NCBI RefSeq assembly: GCF_988242995.1
Contig: NZ_OZ547043.1
Direction: 5' to 3' (one strand)
Length of the DNA stretch: 64,000 bases
The notes below the pieces were generated by a model. That model saw only the letters and a program-made list of their open reading frames with translations, ran no database searches and was not told the origin of the DNA. This document shows positions 9,079 through 42,459 of the stretch, in pieces; the first letter of the stretch is position 1, and every line of letters begins with the position of its first letter. The position numbers and the translations under genes are program-made.

Positions 9079-12000
9079 ATGAGCGGAAAACCGGCGGCGC
9101 GACAGGGCGATATGACCCGCAAGGGACTGGATATTGTGCAGGGTTCAGCGGGGGTGCTGATAGGTGCGCCGACGGGAGTGGCCTGCTCGGTGTGTCCCAA
9201 CAGCCCGGTGGAGGAGCAGAAGGGTAACCCGGTGAACCCGCTACTGGGTGCGAAGGTGCTGCCGGGCGAGACGGATCTTGCGCTGCCCGGCCCGTTGCCG
9301 TTTATTCTTTCCCGCGCCTACAGCAGCTACCGGACCAGGACACCCGCGCCGGTGGGGGTGTTTGGTCCCGGCTGGAAAGCGCCCTTCGATATCCGCTTAC
9401 AGGTTCATGAGCGGGAACTGATACTCAACGACAGTGGCGGCAGGAGCATTCACTTTGAGCCGCTGTTTCCCGGCGAGATAAGCTACAGCCGCAGCGAGTC
9501 GTTCTGGCTGGCAAGGGGCGGGGTGGCGGAGCAGCACAGTTCGCAGCCGCTAAGCGCGCTCTGGCAGGTGCTGCCGGAGAGTCTCCGCTTAAGCCCGCAT
9601 GTGTACCTGGCGACAAACAGCCTTCAGGGGCCGTGGTGGATACTCGGCTGGCCGGAGCGGGTACCGGAGGCGGACGAGGTGCTGCCGCCGGAGCCGCCCG
9701 CATACCGGGTGCTGACGGGCGTGGTGGACGGCTTCGGGCGGACGCTGGCCTTCCACCGGGCGGCAGAGGGGGAAGCGGCGGGCGCGGTGACGGGGGTGAC
9801 GGACGGCGCGGGCCGCCGTTTTCATCTGGCGCTGACCACACAGGCGCAGCGGGCGAAAGCCTTCCGTAAACAGCGCGAGTCTTCTTTATCTTCTCCGGCC
9901 AGTCCCCGTTCTGTTTCCTCTTCTCAGTTTTTCCCCGACACGCTGCCCACCGGTACAGAGTACGGTGCCGATAACGGTATCCGGCTGGAGGCGGTATGGC
10001 TGACACACGACCCGGCATACCCGGATGAACTGCCGACTGCGCCGCTGGCGCGCTACACGTACACGGCCAGCGGAGAACTGCGGGCGGTGTATGACCGCAG
10101 CGGTACGCAGGTGCGCGGGTTTACTTATGATGCGGAGCACGCCGGGCGGATGGTGGCGCACCATTATGCGGGGAGGCCGGAGAGCCGCTACCGGTATGAT
10201 GATACCGGTCGGGTGACGGAGCAGGTCAACCCGGAGGGGCTGGACTACCGCTTTGAGTACGGGCAGGACCGCGTGACCATCACGGACAGCCTGAACCGGC
10301 GGGAGGTGCTGTACACGGAGGGCGAGGGCGGCCTGAAGCGGGTGGTGAAGAAGGAGTATGGGGACGGGAGCATCACCCGCAGCGAGTATGATGAGGCGGG
10401 GAGGCTGAAGGCGCAGACGGATGCGGCGGGACGGCGGACGGAGTACCGGCTGCATATGGCGTCGGGAAAGCTGACTTCAGTGATACTGCCGGACGGCAGG
10501 ACGGTACGGTATGGTTACAACAACCAGTTGCAACTGACGTCAGTGACGTACCCGGACGGGCTGCGCCGCAGCCGGAAATATGACCGTCAGGGCAGGCTGG
10601 CGGAAGAGGTCTCGCGCAACGGTAACATTACGCGCTGGTTTTATGATTCTTCCCGCAGTGGCCTGCCCTGTGCGGTGGAAGACGGAACCGGGGTGAGGCG
10701 GAGAATAACGCGAAACCGGTACGGTCAGCTTCAGGCATTTACGGACTGTTCAGGGTACACGACGCGGTATGAATACGACCGGTACGGTCAGAGGACGGCG
10801 GTTCACCGGGAGGAAGGCATCAGCACTTACAGCAGTTATAACCCGCGTGGTCAACTGGTCAGTCAGAAGGATGCGCAGGGACGTGAAACCCGTTATGAGT
10901 ACAGCGCCGCAGGCGACCTCACCGCTATCATTGCCCCGAACGGCAGCCGGAGTGAGACACAGTATGATGCGTGGGGAAAGGCCGTCAGCACCACGCAGGG
11001 CGGACTGACGCGCAGCATGGAGTATGACGCCGCCGGGAGCATCACCGTGCTGACCAACGAGAACGGCAGCCAGTCCACGTTCCGGTATGACCCGGTGGAC
11101 AGGCTGACGGAGCAGCGCGGCTTTGACGGCAGGACACAGCGTTACCGGTACAGCGCCACAGGGCAGCTCATCCGCAGCGAGGATGAGGGGCAGGTCACGC
11201 AGTGGTACTACGATGACGCCGGGCGCATCACGCACCGGACGGTGAACGGCGACCCGGCGGAGCAGTGGCAGTATGACGACCACGGCTGGCTGACAGAAAT
11301 CAGCCACCTGAGCGAAGGCCACCGTGTGGCGGTCCACTACGGCTATGACGATAAAGGCCGCCTGACGGGCGAACGGCAGACGGTGGAGAACCAGGAGACG
11401 GGGGAGATGCTGTGGGAGCATGAGACGAGGCACGTCTACAGCGAACAGGGGCTGGCGACCCGTCAGGAGCCGGACGGTCTGCCGCCGGTGGAGTGGCTGA
11501 CGTATGGCAGCGGTTATCTTGCGGGGATGAAGCTGGGCGGAACGCCGCTGGTCGAGTACACGCGGGACCGGCTGCACCGTGAGACGGCCCGCAGCTTCGG
11601 CGGGGCGGGCAGTACAGCGGGGTACGAACAGGCCACGGCGTACACCCTCACAGGGCAGCTCCGGAGCAGGCACCTGAACCTTCCGCAGCTTGACCGTGAG
11701 TATACGTGGAACGATAACGGGCAACTGGTGCGCATCAGCGGCCCGCAGGAGAGCCGGAAGTACCGTTACAGCGACACGGGAAGACTGACGGGCGTTCACA
11801 CCACGGCGGCGAACCTGGATATCGATATCCCGTATGCGACGGACCCGGCAGGAAACCGGCTGCCGGACCCGGAACTGCACCCGGACAGCACCTTCACGGC
11901 GTGGCCGGATAACCGCATCACGGAAGATGCGCACTATGTCTACCGCTACGATGAATACGGCAGGCTGGCGGAGAAGACGGACCGTATCCCGGAAGGGGTG

Positions 12001-13290
12001 ATACGGATGCACGACGAGCGGACGCACCACTACCATTACGACAGCCAGCACCGCCTGGTGTTCTACACGCGGATACAGCACGGCGAGCCACAGGTGGAGA
12101 GCCGCTACCTCTATGACCCGCTGGGCCGCCGGACGGGGAAACGGGTGTGGCGGCGGGAGCGTGACCTGACGGGGTGGATGTCGCTGTCGCGTAAACCGGA
12201 GGAGACCTGGTACGGGTGGGACGGTGACAGGCTGACGACGGTACAGACCGGCACCACGCGTATCCAGACGGTATACCAGCCGGGGAGCTTCACGCCGCTC
12301 ATCAGAATCGAAACAGAGAATGGTGAACAGGCGAAGGCGCGGCACCGGAGTCTGGCGGAGGTGTTGCAGGAGGACACGGGGGTGACGCTACCGGCGGAGC
12401 TGTCGGTGATGCTGGGGAGGCTGGAGCGGGAACTGCGCGCGGGTGCGGTGAGTGCGGAGAGTGAGGCATGGCTTCAGCAGTGCGGGCTGACGGCGGAACA
12501 GATGAAAAACCAGATGGAGGCGGAATACATCCCGGAGAGGACACTTCATCTTTACCACTGCGACCACCGGGGGCTGCCGCAGGCGCTCATCAGCCCGGAA
12601 GGGGAAACGGCGTGGCAGGGGGAGTATGACGAGTGGGGAAACCTGCTGGGCGAAACCAGCGCGCAGCAACTGCAACAGCCGTACCGTCTGCCGGGGCAGC
12701 AGTATGATGAGGAGTCGGGGCTGTACTATAACCGCAACCGGTACTATGACCCGTTGCAGGGGCGGTATATCACCCAGGATCCCATTGGGCTAAGAGGTGC
12801 ATGGAACCTGTATCAGTATCCATTGAATCCAACTACTAAGATAGATCCGTTGGGTCTCTCCGGAGAAGATTCCATAGAGCAGTCAGGTCCATCTTGGTTG
12901 ATTGCTGACCCCATGGATAAATACAGACAACAGGCAGTGATGGGTTTAACAAAATTGTGGGATGATACCTTTAGTCAAGAGAAGACTAAATGTTTACCTA
13001 CGACACCTGAAAACATCAGGATGGTTGTGGCCAACAGTCCCTTGTTGACAGTACAACAAAAAGTCTCAGTACCCGTAGTAGCTCACTACGTACAAATGCT
13101 GGAAGATGGTAGTGGAGCACCACCGGTTGATATGGATGGGAATGTGATTGTTAATGGTAATCACAGGATGGTTGCGGGTCTGTTATGTGATAAACTTCCT
13201 CCTGAGCGGCCAGGTACGCGTCCATTATCGGCACCACTATATCCGTTTAGCCAAATTTTTCCGGAGTTAGATGATTGGGGGAATAGATGA
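9079..13290 (+). CDS. rhsE: Rhs-family protein: YD-repeat core with a variable C-terminal toxin domain
   Basis: 1403-aa ORF starting [13 protein letters not shown]…; many YD/RHS repeats (…[12 protein letters not shown]…, …YEYDRYGQ…); core ends with the canonical …[31 protein letters not shown] (DPLGL at 12844-12858), followed by ~143 aa of unrelated AT-rich sequence; RBS aagga upstream. Confidence 0.9.
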
Positions 13291-13772
13291 TAAGAATCGC
13301 GTTTTTAATAACCAATAAATTTCTTGATATAGATAGTACCACTCTTGCTGGATATGATTTTAGCGGGATGGATCTACATCGTGCCATCCTCAATGGTTAT
13401 TGTCTTGATGGGGCGAAATTTGAAAATTCCCATTTAAGAAATGTAATGATTCAACATACATCAACTAGAAATGCTGTCTTTCGCAATGCGGCTCTGATGA
13501 ACGCTATTCTTAATAACTCAGATTTCACTGGAAGTGACTTTAGTAATTCAAGGTCAATAGGTGCAAACTTTGAGGGTGCTATATTAACTAATTCAACCTT
13601 TTGCAATGCAGACGTTAAAGATTCAAATTTTTCTGGTGCTGACTTATGTGGCGCTAATTTATTATGTGATAGATATGGCGATATAAATATAACAGGTGCA
13701 TTATTCGATAAAAACACCTCATGGTTAGAAGGTTTTGATCCTATAGCTCATGGGGCTATATTAAAAATATGA
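13287..13772 (+). CDS. ydcD: Pentapeptide-repeat protein, probable Rhs immunity protein
   Basis: 161-aa ORF whose ATG overlaps the rhsE stop (ATGA at 13287-13290); tandem A(D/N)LXX-type repeats (…[64 protein letters not shown]…); AT-rich like the rhsE tip. Confidence 0.75.
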
Positions 13773-14100
13773 CAAGGATCATAACTCATTATTTTCTGTG
13801 TCAGTAACACTGATGTGGAAAGTAGACTTACTTGCAATAGCCACCGGGATCTGCTGTTGAAAGCCGATCCCAAACAACCCCGGTTGCTGTGGTAAAGAGT
13901 CATAGTAGCGAGCGCAGGGGGAGTGCTCAGATTATATGAGATACAGTGAAATGAATAAACCCGAACCTGTGTTGACGTGTCGTTAGTCCTAAGCGGCATC
14001 AGAACCGGAGGTTTCGTGATACCGCCGTGATAAATTTACGGGTGAATTCCGAATGCTACGTAAAGGGTGTCCGGCGTATAGCAGACATCAGGATAAAAGT

Positions 14101-15494
14101 ATGAAAGCCCACGCCCCACAAGGCTTTACCGGATGATGAGTTTTTAAACTACGACATTACTTTTACAGTAAAATCCATCATGTTGGTATTTTCTCTCGAA
14201 CAATTTGACGATCCACGGAAAGATCACGTAACGCTGCTTTTTTGTACTAGACAATTCGCATTTTATGTTTAACAATTGAGATATTCCTCATTACCTGAAG
14301 CTGTTTTTTATTGCGTATACATGATCAAATACTCCTTACATAATTAAGGAGAACAAAATGGAACTTAAAAAATTGATGGAACATATTTCTATTATCCCCG
14401 ATTACAGACAAGCCTGGAAAGTGGAACATAAATTTTCGGATATTCTACTGTTGACTATTTGTGCCGTTATTTCGGGTGCAGAAGGCTGGGAAGATATAGA
14501 GGATTTTGGGGAAACACATCTCGATTTTTTGAAGCAATATGGTGATTTTGATAATGGTATTCCTGTTCACGATACCATTGCCAGAGTTGTATCCTGTATC
14601 AGTCCTGCAAAATTTCACGAGTGCTTTATTAACTGGATGCGTGACTGCCATTCTTCAGATGATAAAGACGTCATCGCAATTGATGGAAAAACACTCCGGC
14701 ATTCTTATGACAAGAGTCGCCGCAAGGGAGCGATTCATGTCATTAGTGCGTTCTCAACAATGCACAGTCTGGTTATCGGACAGATCAGGACGGATGAGAA
14801 ATCCAATGAGATTACAGCTATTCCAGAACTTCTTAACATGCTGGATATTAAAGGAAAAATCATCACAACTGATGCGATGGGTTGCCAGAAAGATATTGCA
14901 GAGAAGATACAAAAACAGGGCGGTGATTATTTATTCGCTGTAAAAGGAAACCAGGGGCGGCTAAATAAAGCCTTCGAGGAAAAATTTCCGCTGAAAGAAT
15001 TAAATAATCCAGAGCATGACAGTTACGCAATTAGTGAAAAGAGTCACGGCAGAGAAGAAATCCGTCTTCACATTGTTTGCGATGTCCCTGATGAACTTAT
15101 TGATTTCACGTTTGAATGGAAAGGTCTGAAGAAATTATGCGTGGCAGTCTCCTTTCGGTCAATAATAGCAGAACAAAAGAAAGAGCCAGAAATGACGGTC
15201 AGATATTATATCAGTTCTGCTGATTTAACCGCAGAGAAGTTCGCCACAGCAATCCGAAACCACTGGCACGTGGAGAATAAGCTGCACTGGCGTCTGGACG
15301 TGGTAATGAATGAAGACGACTGCAAAATAAGAAGAGGAAATGCAGCAGAATTATTTTCAGGGATACGGCACATGGCTATTAATATTTTAACGAATGATAA
15401 GATATTTAAGGCAGGGTTAAGACGTAAGATGCGAAAAGCAGCCATGGACAGAAACTACCTGGCGTCAGTCCTTGCTGGGTGCGGGCTTTCGTAA
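14101..15494 (+). mobile_element. H-repeat (ISAs1-family) element, copy 2, approximate boundaries
   Basis: Leader 14101-14215 matches the copy-1 leader (atgaaagccc(g/a)cgccccacaag…cgacattacttttа-like block …caatttgac); the 3' end gcgggctttcg at 15481-15491 is inverted relative to the 5' end; contains an intact transposase ORF. Confidence 0.5.
14358..15494 (+). CDS. ydcC: H-repeat-associated protein (ISAs1-family DDE transposase), intact
   Basis: 378-aa ORF; DDE-type transposase features; paralogous to the interrupted ORF at 7521..8657; RBS aaggag upstream. Confidence 0.85.
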
Positions 15495-15539
15495 TCTTGC
15501 CCTGCGCCAAAGATTCCATATAATAATATTAAGGTTGTT

Positions 15540-16175
15540 ATGAATAAAGGTAATAGATTACAACAGTTAGAAGATGCGTGTCGTGATATTATTAAAATTA
15601 ACATGTGGTATGAACTCCCCGATTATGTATTTTTTTCAATATCTGACACCATCGATGGGACGAGTGATGAATTTGCAATAAATGTGTATAAAAATATCGA
15701 TAAAAGTCTTCTTGAAATATTATTGCATCCATCTGTTTTACTGTCAGTTGTTGAGTCCTTACAAAGTAATACTATAGCTGAGTATATCGTGAAATTGTCT
15801 GGAATAGAGATGAATTATGACGACTTGCTAATATCGGATGTTAAGTCATGTCTTTTTATCAACTATGGATTCAATAACAGTGAATCGGTTGCGCTATTTA
15901 ATAAGATTTGCCGCGAATTAAAAGACATTGTAAAATCATCAAGAGTACATATAGATCATGAGAAAGATATTTTTGATGGCCTTAATCAAATCTTGGCTTT
16001 TTCCGATAATAATAAACGTGAGTATTTTTTATATATAAAGGCATATTGGCTCAGTTTATACTTTTGTGAAATTTCACAGAACGTGAGAGAAAGAGATAAG
16101 TTGTCATTTTATTATAATGAATTTTCTGTCCGATTTCCTAATGTTGTCCTATATCCGTCATGCTACAAATTGTAA
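15540..16175 (+). CDS. Hypothetical protein (AT-rich orphan ORF next to the Rhs/H-rpt region)
   Basis: 211-aa ORF with an ATG start and aagg 5 nt upstream; very AT-rich; no family recognisable by eye; lies immediately 3' of the H-rpt element. Confidence 0.5.
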   Translation: MNKGNRLQQLEDACRDIIKINMWYELPDYVFFSISDTIDGTSDEFAINVYKNIDKSLLEILLHPSVLLSVVESLQSNTIAEYIVKLSGIEMNYDDLLISDVKSCLFINYGFNNSESVALFNKICRELKDIVKSSRVHIDHEKDIFDGLNQILAFSDNNKREYFLYIKAYWLSLYFCEISQNVRERDKLSFYYNEFSVRFPNVVLYPSCYKL

Positions 16176-30407: not shown

Positions 30408-31508
30408 TTAGAACTGATAGGTAATGCCCGTTGCGACGATGTTATCGGTGCGAATATCTACGGCACGGGTAAAGTCGCTTTCATCAATCAGGTTGATTTT
30501 ATAATCAACATAGGTCGACATATTTTTGTTGAAGAAATACGTCGCACCAACGTCGATATACTCAATCATGTCCTGGTCGCCGTAGCGGCCCAGATCTCTG
30601 CCTTTCGATTTCAGGTAAGCGAGTGATGGGCGCAAGCCGAAGTCGAATTGATATTGTGCCACTACTTCAAAACTTTGTGCTTTGTTAGAGATATAACCAT
30701 CGCCATAGGTGGTCATGTTTAATGTTTCAGCGTAATTAGCTGCAAAGTAGATGTTGTTGGCATCATATTTTATACCTGTAGCCCACAGTTCTGCATTCTT
30801 ACCGGAGGCATTGAGAGGATTAGCAGCGGCTCTTTCCTGCGCATTTGTCCGATCGGATTTGGTATACACCGCACCGATACCAAAGCCATCATAAACATAA
30901 GTTGAGGAGATACCGAAACCGTCACCATTGGCACGCGTGTAGTCAGCACCATAAAGATGACCATTGTCAGTGCGTTCATTTTTGCCTTGATATTGCGCGG
31001 CAAAGTTCAGACCTTCAATTAAGCCGAAGAAATCGTAGTTGCGATAGGTTGCCACACCGGTAGTACGGTATGTCATGAAGACATCTTTCTGACTCCAGGT
31101 ATCGCCACCAAATTCTGGCAACATATCGGTCCATGAACCAATGTCATAGCCGACACCGTAGTTACGACCATAGTCCAGAGAGCCAAATTCACTAATTTTT
31201 AAACCTGCATAGGCCAGACGGGTCTTGTTACCGCGCGAGCCGTTGGCTTCATCGTTATAGCCTTTAAAATCATATTCCCAGTGACCAAAACCAATCATTT
31301 GATCATTGATTTGCGTTTCTCCTTTAAAGCCGAGACGGGCATAAGTTTTATCACCATCGTCACGCTTATCATCAGTAAAATAACGTAGAGCGGTAACCTT
31401 GCCATAAAGGTCGAGTTTATTACCATCCTTGTTATAGACTTCGGCAGCGTGTGCTACGTTCGCAGCTAACAAACCAGTTACAACCACCGCAACTATTTTT
31501 AATTTCAT
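30408..31508 (-). CDS. yddL: General porin of the OmpC/OmpF/OmpN family, apparently intact
   Basis: 366-aa ORF with signal peptide [21 protein letters not shown], then [17 protein letters not shown]… and the C-terminal …GITYQF typical of enterobacterial 16-strand porins. Confidence 0.8.
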
Positions 31509-31766
31509 TTAACAGAATCCTTTTAATTATCGTTAAACGTATTTTCTAAACGAATTTTAAACGGCGTCATTTATAAATGACATACTGTTTTTAAAATAGA
31601 ATGGTGATTAAAAACAATGAGAAAAATAGATGAAATAATATTATTTATCGATATGTGATCGAAGTCGAAATGAGATATAAGGTGAACTACTGGTATTTGA
31701 AATTTATTTTTTTATATTGTCGGAATTTATCTGATTAACTGCCGGGCCGTAGACCCGACAATTATT

Positions 31767-32648
31767 TTAGCCACGACGTGTCGCCAGCCAGCAGAGCAGG
31801 GAACCGCCGCAGACCATTAGCGCGCCTTGCCAGAACGAGAACGACAGCGGGGCGCTGAGCAGCACGGCTGCAAGCGCTGAGGAAAGGACGGGCGTAAAAT
31901 ACGAACCTACCGCCATAATGGTGACGTTGCCATGTAATATACCGACGTTCCATGCAGCATAAGCAAATCCTAAGGTAAATGCCGCAGAGGTGAGTTTAAT
32001 CATGACGGGCGTGCTAAATACCATTTCTGGTTGTGGCGTGAGAAAATAGTAAACCCACAGACTTGCTCCCGTTAGTAGGACAAAAACGGTAATTCCGTTA
32101 AATCCGCGTGCGTATTTATTCGTTACTGTGCAATAGGCTGCCCAGATAAACGCACCAATAAACGCCAGGAAATAACTCAATGGGCTGGTGGTGATATTAT
32201 TGATGATTTCATCATAATGTAACCCATTGTCACCACCTAACACCCAGCAGACGCCAACCAGGGCTAATAATAATCCTGGTACAATCAGCCAGTTGGTTTT
32301 CTGACCATTAAACAGAATGGCAAAGAGAATTGTCAGGCTGGGCCACAGATAGTTCACCATACCCACTTCAATCGCCTGATGACGGGTCGCCGCATATCCT
32401 AAGGAAAGCGCCAGACAGATTTCATAGCTGACGAATAACAGACACCCGGCGAGTAAATAGCCTTTCGGGATCTGCCGAATACGCGGAAATCCAACCGTGA
32501 AGATTAACAGCAGCCCGCTTAATGAATAGATAGCAGCTGCACCGCCGACCGGGCCGAGCCCCTCACTGACACCGCGAATCAATCCTACCATCGTGCTCCA
32601 CAGGACGATCGCTATTAGCCCTATGAGCGTTGCTTTTTGTCGTGTCAT
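31767..32648 (-). CDS. yddG: Aromatic amino acid exporter (DMT/EamA family)
   Basis: 293-aa ORF with ten predicted transmembrane segments; divergent from fdnG. Confidence 0.85.
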   Translation of the reverse strand: MTRQKATLIGLIAIVLWSTMVGLIRGVSEGLGPVGGAAAIYSLSGLLLIFTVGFPRIRQIPKGYLLAGCLLFVSYEICLALSLGYAATRHQAIEVGMVNYLWPSLTILFAILFNGQKTNWLIVPGLLLALVGVCWVLGGDNGLHYDEIINNITTSPLSYFLAFIGAFIWAAYCTVTNKYARGFNGITVFVLLTGASLWVYYFLTPQPEMVFSTPVMIKLTSAAFTLGFAYAAWNVGILHGNVTIMAVGSYFTPVLSSALAAVLLSAPLSFSFWQGALMVCGGSLLCWLATRRG

Positions 32649-32879: not shown

Positions 32880-35800
32880 ATGGACGTCAGTCGCAGACAA
32901 TTTTTTAAAATCTGCGCGGGCGGTATGGCTGGAACAACGGTAGCGGCATTGGGCTTTGCCCCGAAGCAAGCACTGGCTCAGGCGCGAAACTATAAATTAT
33001 TACGCGCGAAAGAGATCCGTAACACCTGCACATACTGTTCCGTAGGTTGCGGGCTATTGATGTATAGCCTGGGTGATGGCGCGAAAAACGCCAGAGAAGC
33101 GATTTATCACATTGAAGGTGACCCGGATCATCCGGTAAGCCGTGGTGCGCTGTGCCCGAAAGGGGCCGGTTTGCTGGATTACGTCAACAGCGAAAACCGT
33201 CTGCGCTACCCGGAATATCGTGCGCCAGGTTCTGACAAATGGCAGCGCATTAGCTGGGATGAAGCATTCTCCCGTATTGCGAAGCTGATGAAAGCTGACC
33301 GTGACGCTAACTTTATTGAAAAGAACGAGCAGGGCGTAACGGTAAACCGTTGGCTTTCTACCGGTATGCTGTGTGCCTCCGGTGCCAGCAACGAAACCGG
33401 GATGCTGACTCAAAAATTTGCCCGCTCCCTCGGGATGCTGGCGGTAGACAACCAGGCGCGCGTCTGACACGGACCAACGGTAGCAAGTCTTGCTCCAACA
33501 TTTGGTCGCGGTGCGATGACCAACCACTGGGTGGATATCAAAAACGCTAACGTCGTAATGGTAATGGGCGGTAACGCTGCTGAAGCGCATCCCGTCGGTT
33601 TCCGCTGGGCGATGGAAGCGAAAAACAACAACGATGCAACCTTGATCGTTGTCGATCCCCGTTTTACGCGTACCGCTTCTGTAGCGGATATTTACGCACC
33701 TATTCGTTCCGGTACGGACATTACGTTCCTGTCTGGCGTTTTGCGCTACCTGATCGAAAACAACAAAATCAATGCCGAATACGTTAAGCATTACACCAAT
33801 GCCAGCCTGCTGGTGCGTGATGATTTTGCTTTCGAAGACGGTCTGTTCAGCGGCTACGACGCTGAAAAACGCCAGTACGATAAATCGTCCTGGAACTATC
33901 AGTTCGATGAAAACGGCTATGCGAAACGCGATGAAACACTGACTCATCCGCGCTGTGTGTGGAACTTGCTGAAAGAGCACGTTTCCCGCTACACGCCGGA
34001 CGTCGTTGAAAACATCTGCGGTACGCCAAAAGCAGACTTCCTGAAAGTGTGTGAAGTGCTGGCCTCCACCAGCGCGCCGGATCGCACAACCACCTTCCTG
34101 TACGCGCTGGGCTGGACGCAGCACACCGTGGGTGCGCAGAACATCCGCACCATGGCGATGATCCAATTGCTGCTCGGTAACATGGGTATGGCTGGTGGCG
34201 GCGTGAACGCATTGCGTGGTCACTCCAACATTCAGGGCCTGACCGACTTAGGTCTGCTCTCAACCAGCCTGCCGGGTTATCTGACGCTGCCGTCAGAAAA
34301 ACAGGTTGATTTGCAGTCGTATCTGGAAGCGAATACGCCGAAAGCGACGCTGGCTGATCAGGTGAACTACTGGAGCAACTATCCGAAGTTCTTCGTTAGC
34401 CTGATGAAATCTTTCTACGGTGATGCTGCACAGAAAGAGAACAACTGGGGCTATGACTGGCTGCCGAAGTGGGACCAGACCTACGACGTCATCAAGTATT
34501 TCAACATGATGGATGAAGGCAAAGTCACCGGTTATTTCTGCCAGGGCTTTAACCCGGTTGCGTCCTTCCCGGACAAAAACAAAGTGGTGAGCTGCCTGAG
34601 CAAGCTGAAGTACATGGTGGTTATCGATCCGCTGGTGACTGAAACCTCTACCTTCTGGCAGAACCACGGCGAGTCGAACGATGTCGATCCGGCGTCCATT
34701 CAGACTGAAGTATTCCGTCTGCCTTCGACCTGCTTTGCTGAAGAAGATGGTTCTATTGCTAACTCCGGTCGCTGGTTGCAGTGGCACTGGAAAGGTCAGG
34801 ACGCGCCGGGCGAAGCGCGTAACGACGGCGAAATTCTGGCGGGTATCTACCATCATCTGCGCGAGCTGTACCAGGCCGAAGGTGGTAAAGGCGTAGAACC
34901 GCTGATGAAGATGAGCTGGAACTACAAGCAGCCGCACGAACCGCAATCTGACGAAGTAGCTAAAGAGAACAACGGCTACGCGCTGGAAGATCTCTATGAT
35001 GCCAATGGCGTGCTGATTGCGAAGAAAGGTCAGTTGCTGAGTAGCTTTGCGCATCTGCGTGATGACGGTACAACCGCATCTTCTTGCTGGATCTACACCG
35101 GTAGCTGGACAGAGCAGGGCAACCAGATGGCTAACCGCGATAACTCCGACCCGTCCGGTCTGGGGAATACGCTGGGATGGGCCTGGGCGTGGCCGCTCAA
35201 CCGTCGCGTACTCTACAACCGTGCTTCGGCGGATATCAACGGTAAACCGTGGGATCCGAAACGGATGCTGATCCAGTGGAACGGCAGCAAGTGGACGGGT
35301 AACGATATTCCGGACTTCGGCAATGCCGCGCCAGGTACACCAACCGGACCGTTTATCATGCAGCCGGAAGGGATGGGACGCCTGTTTGCCATCAACAAAA
35401 TGGCGGAAGGTCCGTTCCCGGAACACTACGAGCCAATCGAAACGCCGCTGGGCACTAACCCGCTGCATCCGAACGTGGTGTCTAACCCGGTTGTTCGTCT
35501 GTATGAACAAGACGCGCTGCGGATGGGTAAAAAAGAGCAGTTCCCGTATGTGGGTACGACCTATCGTCTGACCGAGCACTTCCACACCTGGACCAAGCAC
35601 GCGTTGCTCAACGCAATTGCTCAGCCGGAACAGTTTGTGGAAATCAGCGAAACGCTGGCGGCGGCGAAAGGCATTAATAATGGCGATCGTGTCACTGTCT
35701 CAAGCAAGCGTGGCTTTATCCGCGCGGTGGCGGTGGTAACGCGCCGTCTGAAACCGCTGAATGTAAACGGTCAGCAGGTTGAAACGGTGGGTATTCCAAT

Positions 35801-39095: not shown

Positions 39096-40793
39096 TTAGA
39101 TGGAGGTACGGCGGTAGTCGCGGTATTCGGCGTGCCAGAAATTATCATCAATGGCCTGTTGCAGAGCTTCGGCGGAGGTTTTCACCGCCACGCCTTGCTG
39201 CTGCGCCATTTTGCCAACCGCAAAGGCAATTGCGCGGGAGACTTTCTGAATATCTTTCAGTTCCGGTAGTACCAGACCTTCGCCGTTCAGGACCAGCGGC
39301 GAATACTGAGCAAGCGTTTCACTCGCCGACATCAGCATCTCATCGGTGATACGTGACGCGCCGGAAGCAATAACGCCCAGCCCGATGCCCGGGAAAATAA
39401 AGGCGTTGTTACACTGGGCGATAGGGTAGATTTTATCTTTCCATACCACTGGGTTAAACGGACTGCCAGTGGCGACCAGCGCGTTACCTTCGGTCCAGGC
39501 GATAATGTCCTGCGGTGTGGCTTCCACGCGTGACGTCGGGTTAGACAGCGGCATCACGATCGGACGCGGACAGTGTTTATGCATCTCACGGATGATCTCT
39601 TCCGTAAACAGCCCGGTCTGTCCTGAGACGCCAATCAGAATATCTGGTTTTACATTACGCACCACATCCAGCAGTGACAGCACATCGCTGTCGGTATCCC
39701 AGTCACTGAGGTTTTCGCGCTTCTGCACCAGTTTGGTCTGGAAAGGCAGCAGGTTCGGCATCTTGTCGGTCAGCAGGCCAAAGCGATCAACCATAAAGAC
39801 TTTCTGCCGCGCCGCTTCCTCGCTTAATCCTTCACGCTGAGTCTGGGCGATGATCATTTCGGCAATCCCGCACCCCGCAGAGCCTGCGCCGAGGAAGACA
39901 ATCTTTTTCTCGCTCAGTTGACCACCCGCCGCGCGGCTGGCTGCGATCAGTGTGCCGACCGTTACCGCCGCGGTGCCCTGAATGTCATCGTTAAAAGAAC
40001 AAATTTCATTGCGATAGCGGTTAAGTAACGGCATCGCATTTTTTTGTGCGAAGTCTTCAAACTGCAACAGTACGTCCGGCCAGCGTTGTTTCACAGCCTG
40101 GATAAATTCATCAACGAATTCATAGTATTCGTCGTCAGTGATACGCGGATTACGCCAGCCCATATACAGCGGATCGTTAAGCAGCTGTTGGTTGTTCGTC
40201 CCGACATCCAGCACCACCGGAAGGGTATACGCTGGGCTGATGCCGCCACAGGCAGTATAGAGTGACAGTTTACCGATAGGAATGCCCATCCCGCCGATGC
40301 CCTGGTCACCAAGCCCCAGAATACGTTCACCGTCAGTCACCACAATCACTTTAATATTATGGTTCGGCACGTTTTGCAGAATATCGTCCATATTGTGGCG
40401 GTTCTGGTAAGAGATAAACACGCCGCGTGAACGGCGGTAGATCTCAGAAAAACGCTCACAGGCTGCGCCGACGGTTGGGGTATAAATAACAGGCATCATC
40501 TCATCAAGATGATTGTTTACCAGACGGTAGAAGAGGGTTTCGTTAGTGTCCTGGATGTTACGCAGGTAAATGTGTTTGTCGATTTCGGTTTTGAATCCCT
40601 GATACTGGATCCATGCTCGTTCCGCTTGTTCTTCGATGGTTTCGACCACTTCCGGCAGTAACCCCAGCAGGTTGAAGTTACGGCGTTCTTCCATGCTGAA
40701 GGCACTGCCTTTATTCAACAACGGAAATTCCAGCAGTACAGGGCCAGCGTAAGGAATATAAAGCGAACGCTGTTTTTTTGTTTTTGGTTCCAT
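39096..40793 (-). CDS. maeA: NAD-dependent malic enzyme
   Basis: ATG at 40791-40793 gives [33 protein letters not shown]… (565 aa); malic-enzyme signature and NAD-binding GAGSAG motif. Confidence 0.9.
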
Positions 40794-40889
40794 GTCACTC
40801 ACTCTTTTTTGAATATCCATCCCTGGCACGCTTTTATCGTCTTTGCTTTACCGCCAGGGCGTCGGCCCCAAGTATAAAGCAGATAAAAA

Positions 40890-41598
40890 TAAATATCCTC
40901 CGGCATAGCCGGAGGTTTTTCAAATGCGCCTGTAAGGCTCTGTTACCAGCCGCGCCCTAACAGGCGCACACGATCTGACATTTGCATCCAACTTCGTTAC
41001 TTACGGCCCGTAAACGGGCTGCCCGGATAGGGAATCGATAACTGCTCTCCCATTTTATCCTCTTCAAGCTGGTGCTTTATGTAGTCCTGTATCTTCGCCG
41101 TGTTCTTACCCACCGTATCGACATAGTACCCTCGGCACCAGAACTCCCTGTTTCTGTATTTGAATTTCAAATCCCCAAACTGCTCGTAAAGCATCAGACT
41201 GCTTTTCCCTTTCAGATATCCCATAAAGCCGGATACGCTCATTTTGGGTGGGATTTCCACAAGCATATGGATATGATCTGCGCAGCACTCTGCTTCCAGA
41301 ATCCGTACGCTTTTCCACTCACACAGCTTTCTCAAAATACTGCCTATCGCCCTACGCTTCTCTCCGTAAAACGCCAGTCTTCGGTATTTCGGCGCAAAAA
41401 CTATGTGATATTTACAGTTCCAGCGGGTGTGCGCTAAGCTCTTTTCGTCCCCCATTGGGACCCCCTTTTGATTTCTTGTTTGACACTTGCAGTTGCCAGA
41501 CCGCAAGGTGTTTTAACAAATCAAAAGGGGTTTTAATAACTGGCTCAAAGCTGAAAGCTTTCCGGAACCCCCAGCCTAGCTGGGGGTTTTCTGTGCAC
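40890..41598 (-). mobile_element. IS200-family (IS200/IS605) insertion sequence, about 0.71 kb
   Basis: Single Y1 (HUH) transposase ORF flanked by subterminal GC-rich hairpins: cccccagc-cta-gctggggg (41566-41584) and cctccggc-ata-gccggagg (40897-40915), plus a long RBS-sequestering stem (cccccttttgattt…aaatcaaaaggggg) just upstream of tnpA. Boundaries are approximate. Confidence 0.65.
40997..41455 (-). CDS. tnpA: IS200-type transposase TnpA (Y1 HUH family)
   Basis: ATG at 41453-41455 gives a 152-aa product MGDEKSLAHTRWNCKYHIVFAPKYRR…ADHIHMLVEIPPK…; HUH motif (HIH) and catalytic Tyr region (…YIKHQ…). Confidence 0.8.
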   Translation of the reverse strand: MGDEKSLAHTRWNCKYHIVFAPKYRRLAFYGEKRRAIGSILRKLCEWKSVRILEAECCADHIHMLVEIPPKMSVSGFMGYLKGKSSLMLYEQFGDLKFKYRNREFWCRGYYVDTVGKNTAKIQDYIKHQLEEDKMGEQLSIPYPGSPFTGRK

Positions 41599-41602
41599 AA
41601 CA

Positions 41603-41635
41603 AAAACACCATTGCGCAGGCAATGGTGTTTAATC
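41603..41635 (-). terminator. Rho-independent terminator of sra, adjacent to the IS200 end
   Basis: On the minus strand: hairpin caccattgc-ctgc-gcaatggtg followed by tttttgttg, starting about 25 nt after the sra stop. Confidence 0.55.
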
Positions 41636-41660
41636 GTCATTGAGGACTGATGGTTATGAA

Positions 41661-41798
41661 TTACTTTTCAGAGGGGCGTTTTCTGCCGGTTGGGTTATTT
41701 ACCACGCTGGATTTGTCACCTTCGGTAACTATTTTGCGCTGGTTAGAAATTTTATGGTCCAGTCCAAGAATATGACGTGCCTGACGGTTCGATTTCAT
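41661..41798 (-). CDS. sra: Stationary-phase-induced ribosome-associated protein (small, 45 aa)
   Basis: Below the ORF-track threshold; minus-strand translation from the ATG at 41796-41798 gives [45 protein letters not shown]. Confidence 0.75.
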
Positions 41799-41899
41799 TT
41801 TAACTCCTCAATCCTGTTGCTAGTTTTAAGGACAACATCGCCGTAGCGAAGAAACACGTGCTAAACCCCTAAATTAGGTTGCCGATCAAGCATAGCACC

Positions 41900-42115
41900 T
41901 TAAAGCGTAGGGTGCTGGCCACTGACCACATAATTGATCGTTTGCTGGTAGATATCACTGAGGATGTCGTTATCAGAAGCTTCCACCCATTTGGTCAGCT
42001 CCATGAGAATGTCATCTTCAGTGACAACACCGTGCTCTGCCCGAAGGCCTTGCTCAATGGCATTAACCAGAGCGGGTTCTGCTGTTGAATTTTCTGCCTG
42101 ATAATAAGTAAACAT
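41900..42115 (-). CDS. bdm: Biofilm-dependent modulation protein
   Basis: ATG at 42113-42115 gives a 71-aa product MFTYYQAENSTAEPALVNAIEQGLRAEHGVVTEDDILMELTKWVEASDNDILSDIYQQTINYVVSGQHPTL; upstream of osmC, divergent. Confidence 0.8.
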   Translation of the reverse strand: MFTYYQAENSTAEPALVNAIEQGLRAEHGVVTEDDILMELTKWVEASDNDILSDIYQQTINYVVSGQHPTL

Positions 42116-42459
42116 AGCGATTCTCCGTGTCTGTGTATTTTTGGTGTCTGCTACGGATCGCAGATTTATAAAGCACATTCAGCATGGCAAATATTTGCCG
42201 CTTCGTTGTTAAGATTAGTCCTGGTTGATAATTTTTATATTATAACACCATGATATTCATAGGGATTGTAATTTGGGCGATCCGATTAATATTGATACAA
42301 TATCTTTTGGATTATATATTCCCCGTTATCTATTGTGGGAATTTAATTTAAGTACAGAGATAATGTTTTCGCCGGATTTTATTCGGAATATCCTGCTTAT
42401 CCTCGTGCGGTTTCTCACGTAGTCTATAATTTCCTTTTTAAGCCCACAGGAGAGCAACA

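Follow-up and report, generated by a model that had tools for sequence, protein, structure and literature searches.

The 64,000-nt stretch of contig NZ_OZ547043.1 (RefSeq assembly GCF_988242995.1) analyzed herein, referred to as the window, carries between the genes sra and maeA an insertion sequence (IS) of the IS200 group, whose boundaries, anatomy and target site are the subject of this work. Within positions 39096-42200, the genes maeA, a 152-amino-acid (aa) open reading frame (ORF), sra and bdm were arranged on the minus strand and followed by osmC on the plus strand, the names maeA, sra, bdm and osmC being taken from the RefSeq annotation of the matching locus of Escherichia coli GN25. 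The maeA gene occupied positions 39096-40793, with its annotated start codon ATG at 40791-40793, and sra occupied 41661-41798. The ORF between them, tnpA (40997-41455 including the stop codon), encodes a Y1/HUH transposase, and all three genes were co-oriented on the minus strand, as an earlier note on this DNA had described. The arrangement is almost certainly explained by the transposition of an intact, autonomous IS200-group element, of the kind that E. coli annotations label IS200/IS605-family or IS200C-like, into the terminator of sra.

Occupied and empty alleles of the sra-maeA site

The complete element was found to span 711 bp on the minus strand (40888-41598) and to read 5'-GTGCACAG...GGATATTTATT-3'. 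The comparison with an uninterrupted maeA-sra region, which the earlier note had proposed as a check, was made with E. coli GN25, and it confirmed the insertion and defined both the exact ends and the target site. The flanks of the empty site in this strain were 99.9% identical to those in the window, and the two alleles differed by a clean 711 bp with a 2-nt ambiguity in a run of T. This ambiguity was resolved because other copies of the element have informative flanks. The left boundary was set by eight distinct E. coli sites with differing flanks, at all of which the element starts with GTGCACAG right after ...TT, and the right boundary was set by copies with C or G as the first nucleotide of the right flank, so that the element ends in ...GGATATTTATT. 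The left end at 41598 given in the earlier note was thus retained, whereas its right end at 40890 (a 709-bp element) fell 2 nt short of the true end at 40888.

Read on the strand of the element, the empty site was GCAATGGTG-TTTTTGTT^TTTATCTGC, in which ^ denotes the insertion point, and the junction sequence of the insertion allele was GCAATGGTGTTTTTGTTGTGCACAGAAAACC. The insertion point was located within the T-tract of the sra intrinsic terminator (GGTG-TTTTTGTT^), 8 nt past the last G-C pair of its stem; 62 nt separate it from the sra stop codon upstream, and 94 nt from the maeA ATG downstream. This terminator (41599-41631, minus strand), consisting of a hairpin at 41604-41631 and the retained portion of the T-tract, was also found by a terminator scan and folded with a z-score of -5.05 against shuffled sequences; the target pentanucleotide TTGTT (41599-41603) directly abutted the left end of the IS. 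The element had earlier been described as lying just downstream of the sra terminator, which was correct in placing it between the terminator hairpin and maeA but not in placing it beyond the terminator, as it lies inside the T-tract. No target duplication was present, the empty site having five T and the filled site having TT, the element and TTT, and terminal inverted repeats were also absent, since there is no complementarity between GTGCACAG at one end and ...ATATTTATT at the other. Judging from the mechanism of the family, the element would have entered the T-tract by a single-strand "peel-and-paste" reaction immediately 3' of TTGTT, leaving no duplication.

To survey the locus, a 1,709-bp query, made up of the element with 500 bp of flank to its left and to its right, was searched against 5,426 complete E. 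coli genomes. The sra-maeA locus was matched in 5,415 of them, and the element was found at this position in none of the 5,426 (no single match covering at least 80% of the query), while every sampled locus match was a contiguous empty site in which the flanks formed one 998-bp stretch. The element is known and annotated, its insertion at sra-maeA is specific to this lineage, and only the occupied site is new. An ancestral origin of the sequence, which the earlier note had named as an alternative, was rejected on the grounds of these empty sites in other E. coli genomes. The possibility that a repeat copy had been misplaced between sra and maeA during assembly was also considered, since many E. 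coli genomes harbor several copies of IS200 and the allele occurs in no other complete genome. Such an artefact is, however, extremely improbable, because both junctions were precise to the base with flanking sequence neither lost nor gained, and they coincided with a canonical target (a terminator hairpin and then TTGTT) occupied in the canonical orientation, which a random misjoin would not give.

Transposase and terminal structures of the element

The 152-aa protein was matched by the Pfam family Y1_Tnp (E = 9e-37) and by the NCBIfam equivalog transpos_IS200 (IS200/IS605 family transposase) with 144 bits against a curated cutoff of 55, and it was alignable along its length to the solved IS200-family transposases 2ec2, 2f4f, 2a6m and 2vhg, including ISHp608 TnpA. 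These matches bore out the assignment of the ORF as an HUH/Y1 transposase in the earlier note. The catalytic residues were intact, namely the HUH motif H61-I-H63, Y125 and Q129, and the disabling mutations that the same note had raised as a counter-indication were absent from them. Y125 is the catalytic Tyr of the Salmonella IS200 TnpA, in which the substitution Y125F inactivates the enzyme (PMC4513863). Within the 711 bp, neither a second ORF with a family match nor tnpB was detected. We also weighed whether the element might be a REP (repetitive extragenic palindrome)-associated tyrosine transposase (RAYT/REPtron) or an IS605-type element rather than an IS200, since TnpA showed weak similarity to the NCBIfam model REP_Tyr_transpos. 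This similarity scored 30 bits, the cutoff being 80, whereas the IS200 equivalog reached 144, so that RAYT membership was rejected; moreover, tnpB and flanking arrays of REP or bacterial interspersed mosaic elements (BIME) were lacking, and the element was multicopy and polymorphic in position. We give this reading practically no weight.

Both ends of the element carried a subterminal hairpin with a 3-nt loop. The left-end tip GTGCACAGAAAA (41587-41598, minus strand), whose boundary was taken from copies at other sites, leads into the left hairpin AACCCCCAGC-TAG-GCTGGGGGTT (41566-41588, minus strand) with the core CCCCCAGC-TAG-GCTGGGGG at 41568-41586 (nt 13-31 of the element), which folded at -11.7 kcal/mol as DNA (z = -3.3 against shuffled sequences). 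The right hairpin CCTCCGGC-TAT-GCCGGAGG (40897-40915, minus strand; nt 684-702) has AAAAA on its 5' side and ATATTTATT on its 3' side, folded at -10 kcal/mol (z = -3.5) and was flagged as terminator-like on both strands by the terminator scan. The terminal pentanucleotide TTATT (40888-40892, minus strand) is the putative right cleavage site. In Salmonella IS200, the left-end hairpin (nt 12-34) acts as a bidirectional Rho-independent terminator against read-in transcription (PMC4513863), and the left-end terminator of IS200 stops about 85% of upstream transcripts (PMC5435999).

A long stem-loop in the 5' untranslated region (5'UTR) of tnpA (41462-41530, minus strand; nt 69-137) was predicted to pair the Shine-Dalgarno (SD) sequence AAGGGGGU (41460-41467), in agreement with the earlier suggestion that a long stem can occlude the tnpA ribosome-binding site. 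The first 161 nt of the element folded at -64 kcal/mol as RNA (z = -4.99), and the long stem was present in both the minimum free energy (MFE) and the centroid structures. The published SD-sequestering stem of Salmonella IS200 covers nt 69-138 and involves an identical SD sequence (PMC4513863). In addition, the Rfam family RF01405 (STnc490, Hfq-binding RNA of IS200) matched positions 41465-41588 on the minus strand with 146.4 bits against a gathering score of 56, covering the model in full (1-124 of 124). On the plus strand, a candidate gene for the antisense RNA art200 was placed at 41411-41536, with a promoter-like TTTACA (41411-41416), an 18-nt spacer and TAAGCT (41435-41440), a predicted start near 41447 opposite tnpA codon 3, and a length of about 90 nt. 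The motif TTTACA-N18-TAAGCT, positioned after the published description, is a putative art200 promoter and fell below the threshold of our promoter scan. The STnc490 model matched the tnpA-sense strand and took in the left-end terminator hairpin, whereas STnc490/art200 has been described in the literature as antisense to the tnpA 5'UTR (PMC4513863); the strand and extent of the Rfam family seem to correspond to the sense 5' tnpA region, not to art200.

By analogy with Salmonella IS200, expression of the transposase at this site would be kept low in three ways. The left-end hairpin would terminate read-in from sra and the long 5'UTR stem would hide the ribosome-binding site, both of which have been shown in Salmonella and are conserved in sequence here, and an antisense art200 would probably be made from the opposite strand. 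The overall anatomy likewise resembled that of Salmonella enterica IS200: a length of about 0.7 kb, a sole 152-aa Y1 transposase with Y125, a terminator hairpin near the left end (nt ~12-34), a stem sequestering the SD AAGGGGGU (nt ~69-138), a full-length STnc490, and neither inverted repeats nor target duplication. The two differ in length, the element being 711 bp here, whereas Salmonella copies have been given as 707 bp or, in a second paper, as extending to bp 710 (PMC4513863, PMC12594629). The copy in the window belongs to the E. coli lineage of the element, and the likeness described is one of anatomy. Taken together, the transposase profiles, the hairpins, the STnc490 match and the absence of a duplication upheld the earlier identification as IS200-family by every testable criterion, including the two GC-rich subterminal hairpins with 3-nt loops, which both folded far better than shuffled sequences.

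Movement of the element and possible consequences for sra and maeA

Matches to the element were found at 10,721 places in 3,093 complete E. coli genomes, and a full copy (at least 80% of the query covered) was present in 2,063 of the 5,426, with up to 35 places per genome. Positions 40890-41598 (709 nt) were 100% identical to annotated copies at other loci in strains TUM1886 and Ch1, and 99.7% identical to many further E. coli copies. The E. coli RefSeq copies encode TnpA WP_000502112.1, with tnpA annotated as "IS200/IS605 family transposase" and close relatives as "IS200C family"; they follow the same target rule and differ from the copy at sra-maeA only in the insertion site. A plasmid copy in E. 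albertii annotated as IS200C family was 97% identical to the element, and IS1541 (IS1541A) of Yersinia pestis showed 86.8% nucleotide identity over the full length. IS1541 shares the identical left-hairpin 23-mer, the target of a hairpin followed by TTNTT, and tandem dimers joining the right end to the left end, and it differs in its left-end tip, GTGCCCAG instead of GTGCACAG, in its length of about 710 bp, and in its much higher copy number in Y. pestis.

The sequence comparisons argue for IS200 having moved recently in nature and still moving in natural E. coli, because identical copies occur at unrelated sites and the site described here is unique to its lineage. This view has to face the description of Salmonella IS200 as essentially immobile in laboratory studies (PMC12594629, PMC4513863), which counts against it. 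The same reports would favor an alternative in which the copy is a structurally intact but immobile relic brought in by recombination of the flanking segment, as would the composition of the surroundings: the 24 kb around IS200 (29000-53000) showed only 98.3-98.9% identity to the best complete E. coli genomes, with one record reaching 99%, and this region is a mosaic whose source strain lies outside the complete-genome set. We nonetheless consider an immobile relic very unlikely. The flanks were 99.9% identical to those of the empty-site strain with a difference that is exactly the element, copies identical over 709 nt lie at unrelated loci in other strains, and the insertion follows the hairpin and TTNTT rule seen at 124 of the 126 other flanks among the matches listed; recombination merely shifts the question to the donor lineage. 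Recent transposition into this site is the reading that we retain.

Other copies illustrated the range of sites that are occupied. The TUM1886 copy was located immediately after the terminator of the dsrA small RNA (sRNA) gene (L001:3714-3800, minus strand, with the IS left end at L001:3709; Rfam DsrA, 102 bits). Terminators of sRNA genes are therefore also targets, and the T-tail needed by Hfq-binding sRNAs could be altered. In some genomes, such as that of E. coli HCP5S3_I2 (L003:1476-1934), a copy lay about 9 kb from maeA, by an ompC/ompN-like porin gene and after a terminator hairpin; through copies this close, the fdn-adhP-maeA segment could become subject to recombination or amplification. 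In E. coli PI6 (NZ_CP074042.1), bdm was split by an IS3-family transposase at the same maeA-sra-bdm locus, and this neighborhood has thus been struck independently by different IS. Beyond these strains, the left-end 23-mer was encountered in contigs labelled Bacillota, Peptococcaceae, Saccharibacteria, Elusimicrobiaceae, Mailhella/Desulfovibrio and Oxalobacter metagenome-assembled genomes, as well as Vibrio (L004-L064). Each of these distant lineages had its own 10-nt left-end tip, and many of the contigs break inside the element; the distribution points to very extensive horizontal transfer or else to contamination introduced by binning.

With regard to the host genes, the insertion left the U-tract of sra unaltered over its first 8 nt (UUUUUGUU), and sra termination should therefore persist, as far as can be told from the sequence. 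Any residual read-through from sra would meet the left-end hairpin, and then the right-end hairpin with its U-rich run. As a result of the insertion, maeA is now separated from sra by two extra terminator-like hairpins and keeps 94 nt of native upstream DNA (40794-40887, minus strand) between the right end of the IS and its ATG. A -10-like hexamer, TATACT, was read from this sequence at 40871-40876, 11 nt from the IS junction, and the hexamer at the -35 position reads AGGATA, in place of the GGTGTT of the empty allele. The -35 region would thus have been replaced if TATACT is the -10 element of maeA. A promoter consensus scan of both strands across 40700-41900 returned no promoter-like site that passed, and no transcription start of maeA was found in the literature searched; the placement of the two hairpins upstream of the maeA promoter in the earlier note is thus a conjecture, as is the effect on maeA expression that it suggested.

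These features raise the question of whether the insertion is functionally important and rewires maeA through the new region upstream of the -10 hexamer, through blocked read-through from sra, or through read-out from the element. The closeness of the right end to TATACT and to the maeA ATG, together with the altered hexamer, would agree with such an effect, as would the reported arrest of about 85% of incoming transcripts by the left-end hairpin; furthermore, raised maeA dosage has been reported as strongly beneficial under some conditions (PMC7299349, a citrate paper in eLife dealing with maeA amplification only). However, no promoter-like site passed the scan, the sra terminator already parts sra from maeA in the empty allele, the terminator-like right-end hairpin with its U-rich run should keep read-out weak, and the absence of the allele from all 5,426 complete genomes gives no sign of spread. 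Rewiring of maeA is hence unlikely in our estimation, and the insertion probably has a nearly neutral effect on the host, the outcome that would be expected of terminator targeting.

Several features lying elsewhere in the window were recorded in passing. The stretch 24001-32000 was low in GC (0.435), and 8001-16000 showed a strong positive GC skew (0.149) coinciding with an Rhs-like ORF; both are probably accessory DNA. A selenocysteine insertion sequence (SECIS) element (Rfam SECIS_3, 84 bits) was located at 33462-33520 on the plus strand inside fdnG, encoding the alpha subunit of formate dehydrogenase-N, as expected for a selenoprotein. An isolated match to the Rfam family group-II-D1D4-2 (13840-13948, plus strand; 48 bits against a gathering score of 36) lay downstream of the 1,403-aa Rhs-like ORF (9079-13290) and a small ORF (13287-13772), and upstream of an ISAs1/H-repeat-type DDE transposase (14358-15494; Pfam DDE_Tnp_1_assoc and DDE_Tnp_1). 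Near this match, neither an intron-encoded protein nor further intron domains were found, and it is possibly an intron fragment or conserved H-repeat sequence.

Terminator hairpins at the insertion sites of IS200-type elements

In order to examine the surroundings of related elements, the 23-nt left-end hairpin was used in an exact scan of one genome per species. The 23-mer was exactly conserved at no fewer than 120 loci, belonging to Y. pestis, Vibrio, Brenneria, Dickeya, Edwardsiella, Pluralibacter, Budvicia and the metagenome-assembled genomes named above, and the flank figures given below refer to the matches listed. In the 45 nt before the element, an MFE of -10 kcal/mol or lower was found for 124 of 126 unique flanks (98%), with a median of -18 kcal/mol, as compared with 23% at other T4 sites and 32% at random positions (Mann-Whitney p = 6e-65), and 16.5% at TTNTT sites in ORF-free DNA. 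A strict detector of perfect stems gave 81% for the real insertion flanks against 11.7% for controls, and a stable hairpin preceded the element at all eight distinct E. coli sites. The statement in the earlier note that IS200-family elements tend to insert beside terminator-like palindromes was thereby strongly supported and placed on a quantitative footing.

The start of the IS was fixed independently by the motif GTGC[AC]CAG in 65 flanks, at which positions -5 to -1 before the element were T in 64, T in 54, any nucleotide, T in 64 and T in 65, giving the consensus TTNTT. The commonest target pentamers were TTTTT (29 flanks), TTATT (17) and TTGTT (7), the last being the case at sra, and TTATT is both the right-end tip of the element itself and the second commonest target. 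The last G-C pair of the stem, from which the spacing was measured since full MFE stems are blurred by A-U and G-U pairs reaching into the T-tract, was in most cases separated from the insertion point by 5-10 nt, with distances of 6 and 8-9 nt standing out as peaks; at the right end of the element the corresponding distance is 9 nt.

In IS608, the mechanistic paradigm of the family, each cleavage site is recognized by base pairing with a guide tetranucleotide next to the 5' foot of the subterminal hairpin, and the target resembles the end sequences. The present element resembles IS608 and ISDra2 in its HUH/Y1 TnpA, its subterminal hairpins, its insertion 3' of a short sequence resembling the right-end tip, and a short purine run 5' of each hairpin at the position of the guide, but it differs in lacking tnpB and in its T-rich TTNTT target, which is nearly always preceded by a hairpin. 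To our knowledge, a hairpin is not required in the TTAC target model of IS608. By analogy, the A-run just 5' of the left hairpin may serve as a guide pairing with the T-rich cleavage or target site. Both candidate guides are A-runs (GAAAA on the left and AAAAA on the right) and both cleavage sites are T-rich, and the TTNTT target would follow because the A-run guides pair with T-rich sites; this would account for TTNTT, not for the hairpin.

For the hairpin, we propose that a terminator, comprising a GC-rich hairpin and TTNTT and often having an A-run before the hairpin, may be bound as a look-alike of the right end of the element itself (AAAAA, hairpin, ATATTTATT), and that the sra terminator would have been taken for the right end in this manner. 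Head-to-tail dimers fit this idea, as in them the right end itself is the target. The Ch1 copy (L124), next to add, was one of a head-to-tail tandem pair, and tandem copies were also observed in Y. pestis NCTC5923 (L069, L116, L070 and L072), the junctions of these tandems in both species being ATATTTATT|GTGC... and the spacing 710-711 bp; the dimers seem to have arisen either by one copy targeting the right end of another or from a circle junction. In its general form, the proposal holds that IS200/IS1541-type elements are structure-specific for terminators, their TnpA taking for a right end, in single-stranded DNA, a GC hairpin that follows an A-run and has TTNTT some 6-9 nt beyond its stem. 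We advance it tentatively, as a possibility that is somewhat less probable than its alternatives combined.

Several considerations speak against it. The case for right-end mimicry is one of geometry. The A-run 5' of the target hairpins was significantly enriched relative to unoccupied terminator-like hairpins (2.86 against 1.77 A in 5 nt), which fits mimicry, but the control was imperfect, being made up of real terminators and chance hairpins, and the enrichment is no more than suggestive. Were the strain oriented as K-12 is, the strand targeted here would correspond to the leading-strand template, which is not the one favored by characterized members of the family; the GC skew in the window is dominated by the Rhs-like ORF and is uninformative for the replication strand. 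Finally, part of the association with hairpins could stem from the survival of harmless insertions and not from active choice, although such survival cannot plausibly lift 16.5% to 98% in intergenic DNA. The target rule was not found in the literature searched on target choice by IS200 or IS1541, a search that did not extend to the early IS200/IS1541 papers and the family reviews, and the terminator rule may already have been described, at least qualitatively.

The closest functional analogue is provided by the group IIC (class C) introns, which insert just after terminator or attC stem-loops that are recognized as structured single-stranded DNA (PMC7923331). Both kinds of element find a "safe haven" downstream of genes, but the introns are retroelements employing RNA-DNA pairing and a reverse transcriptase, whereas IS200 transposes as DNA by means of an HUH transposase, and no homology links the two.

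For the window itself, this copy matters little, being a long-known, annotated insertion sequence at a new and probably harmless site. Its wider value lies in an allele that is unique among 5,426 genomes and in movement despite a reputation for immobility. The placement at terminators amounts to a simple target rule that could improve the annotation of IS and the prediction of their polar effects. If true, structure-specific targeting would explain the placement at the ends of terminator T-tracts in many phyla, the tandem dimers, and the harmlessness and long life of the element, and if the recognition of the hairpin is real, the target model established for IS608 would be extended to a target of structure plus sequence.

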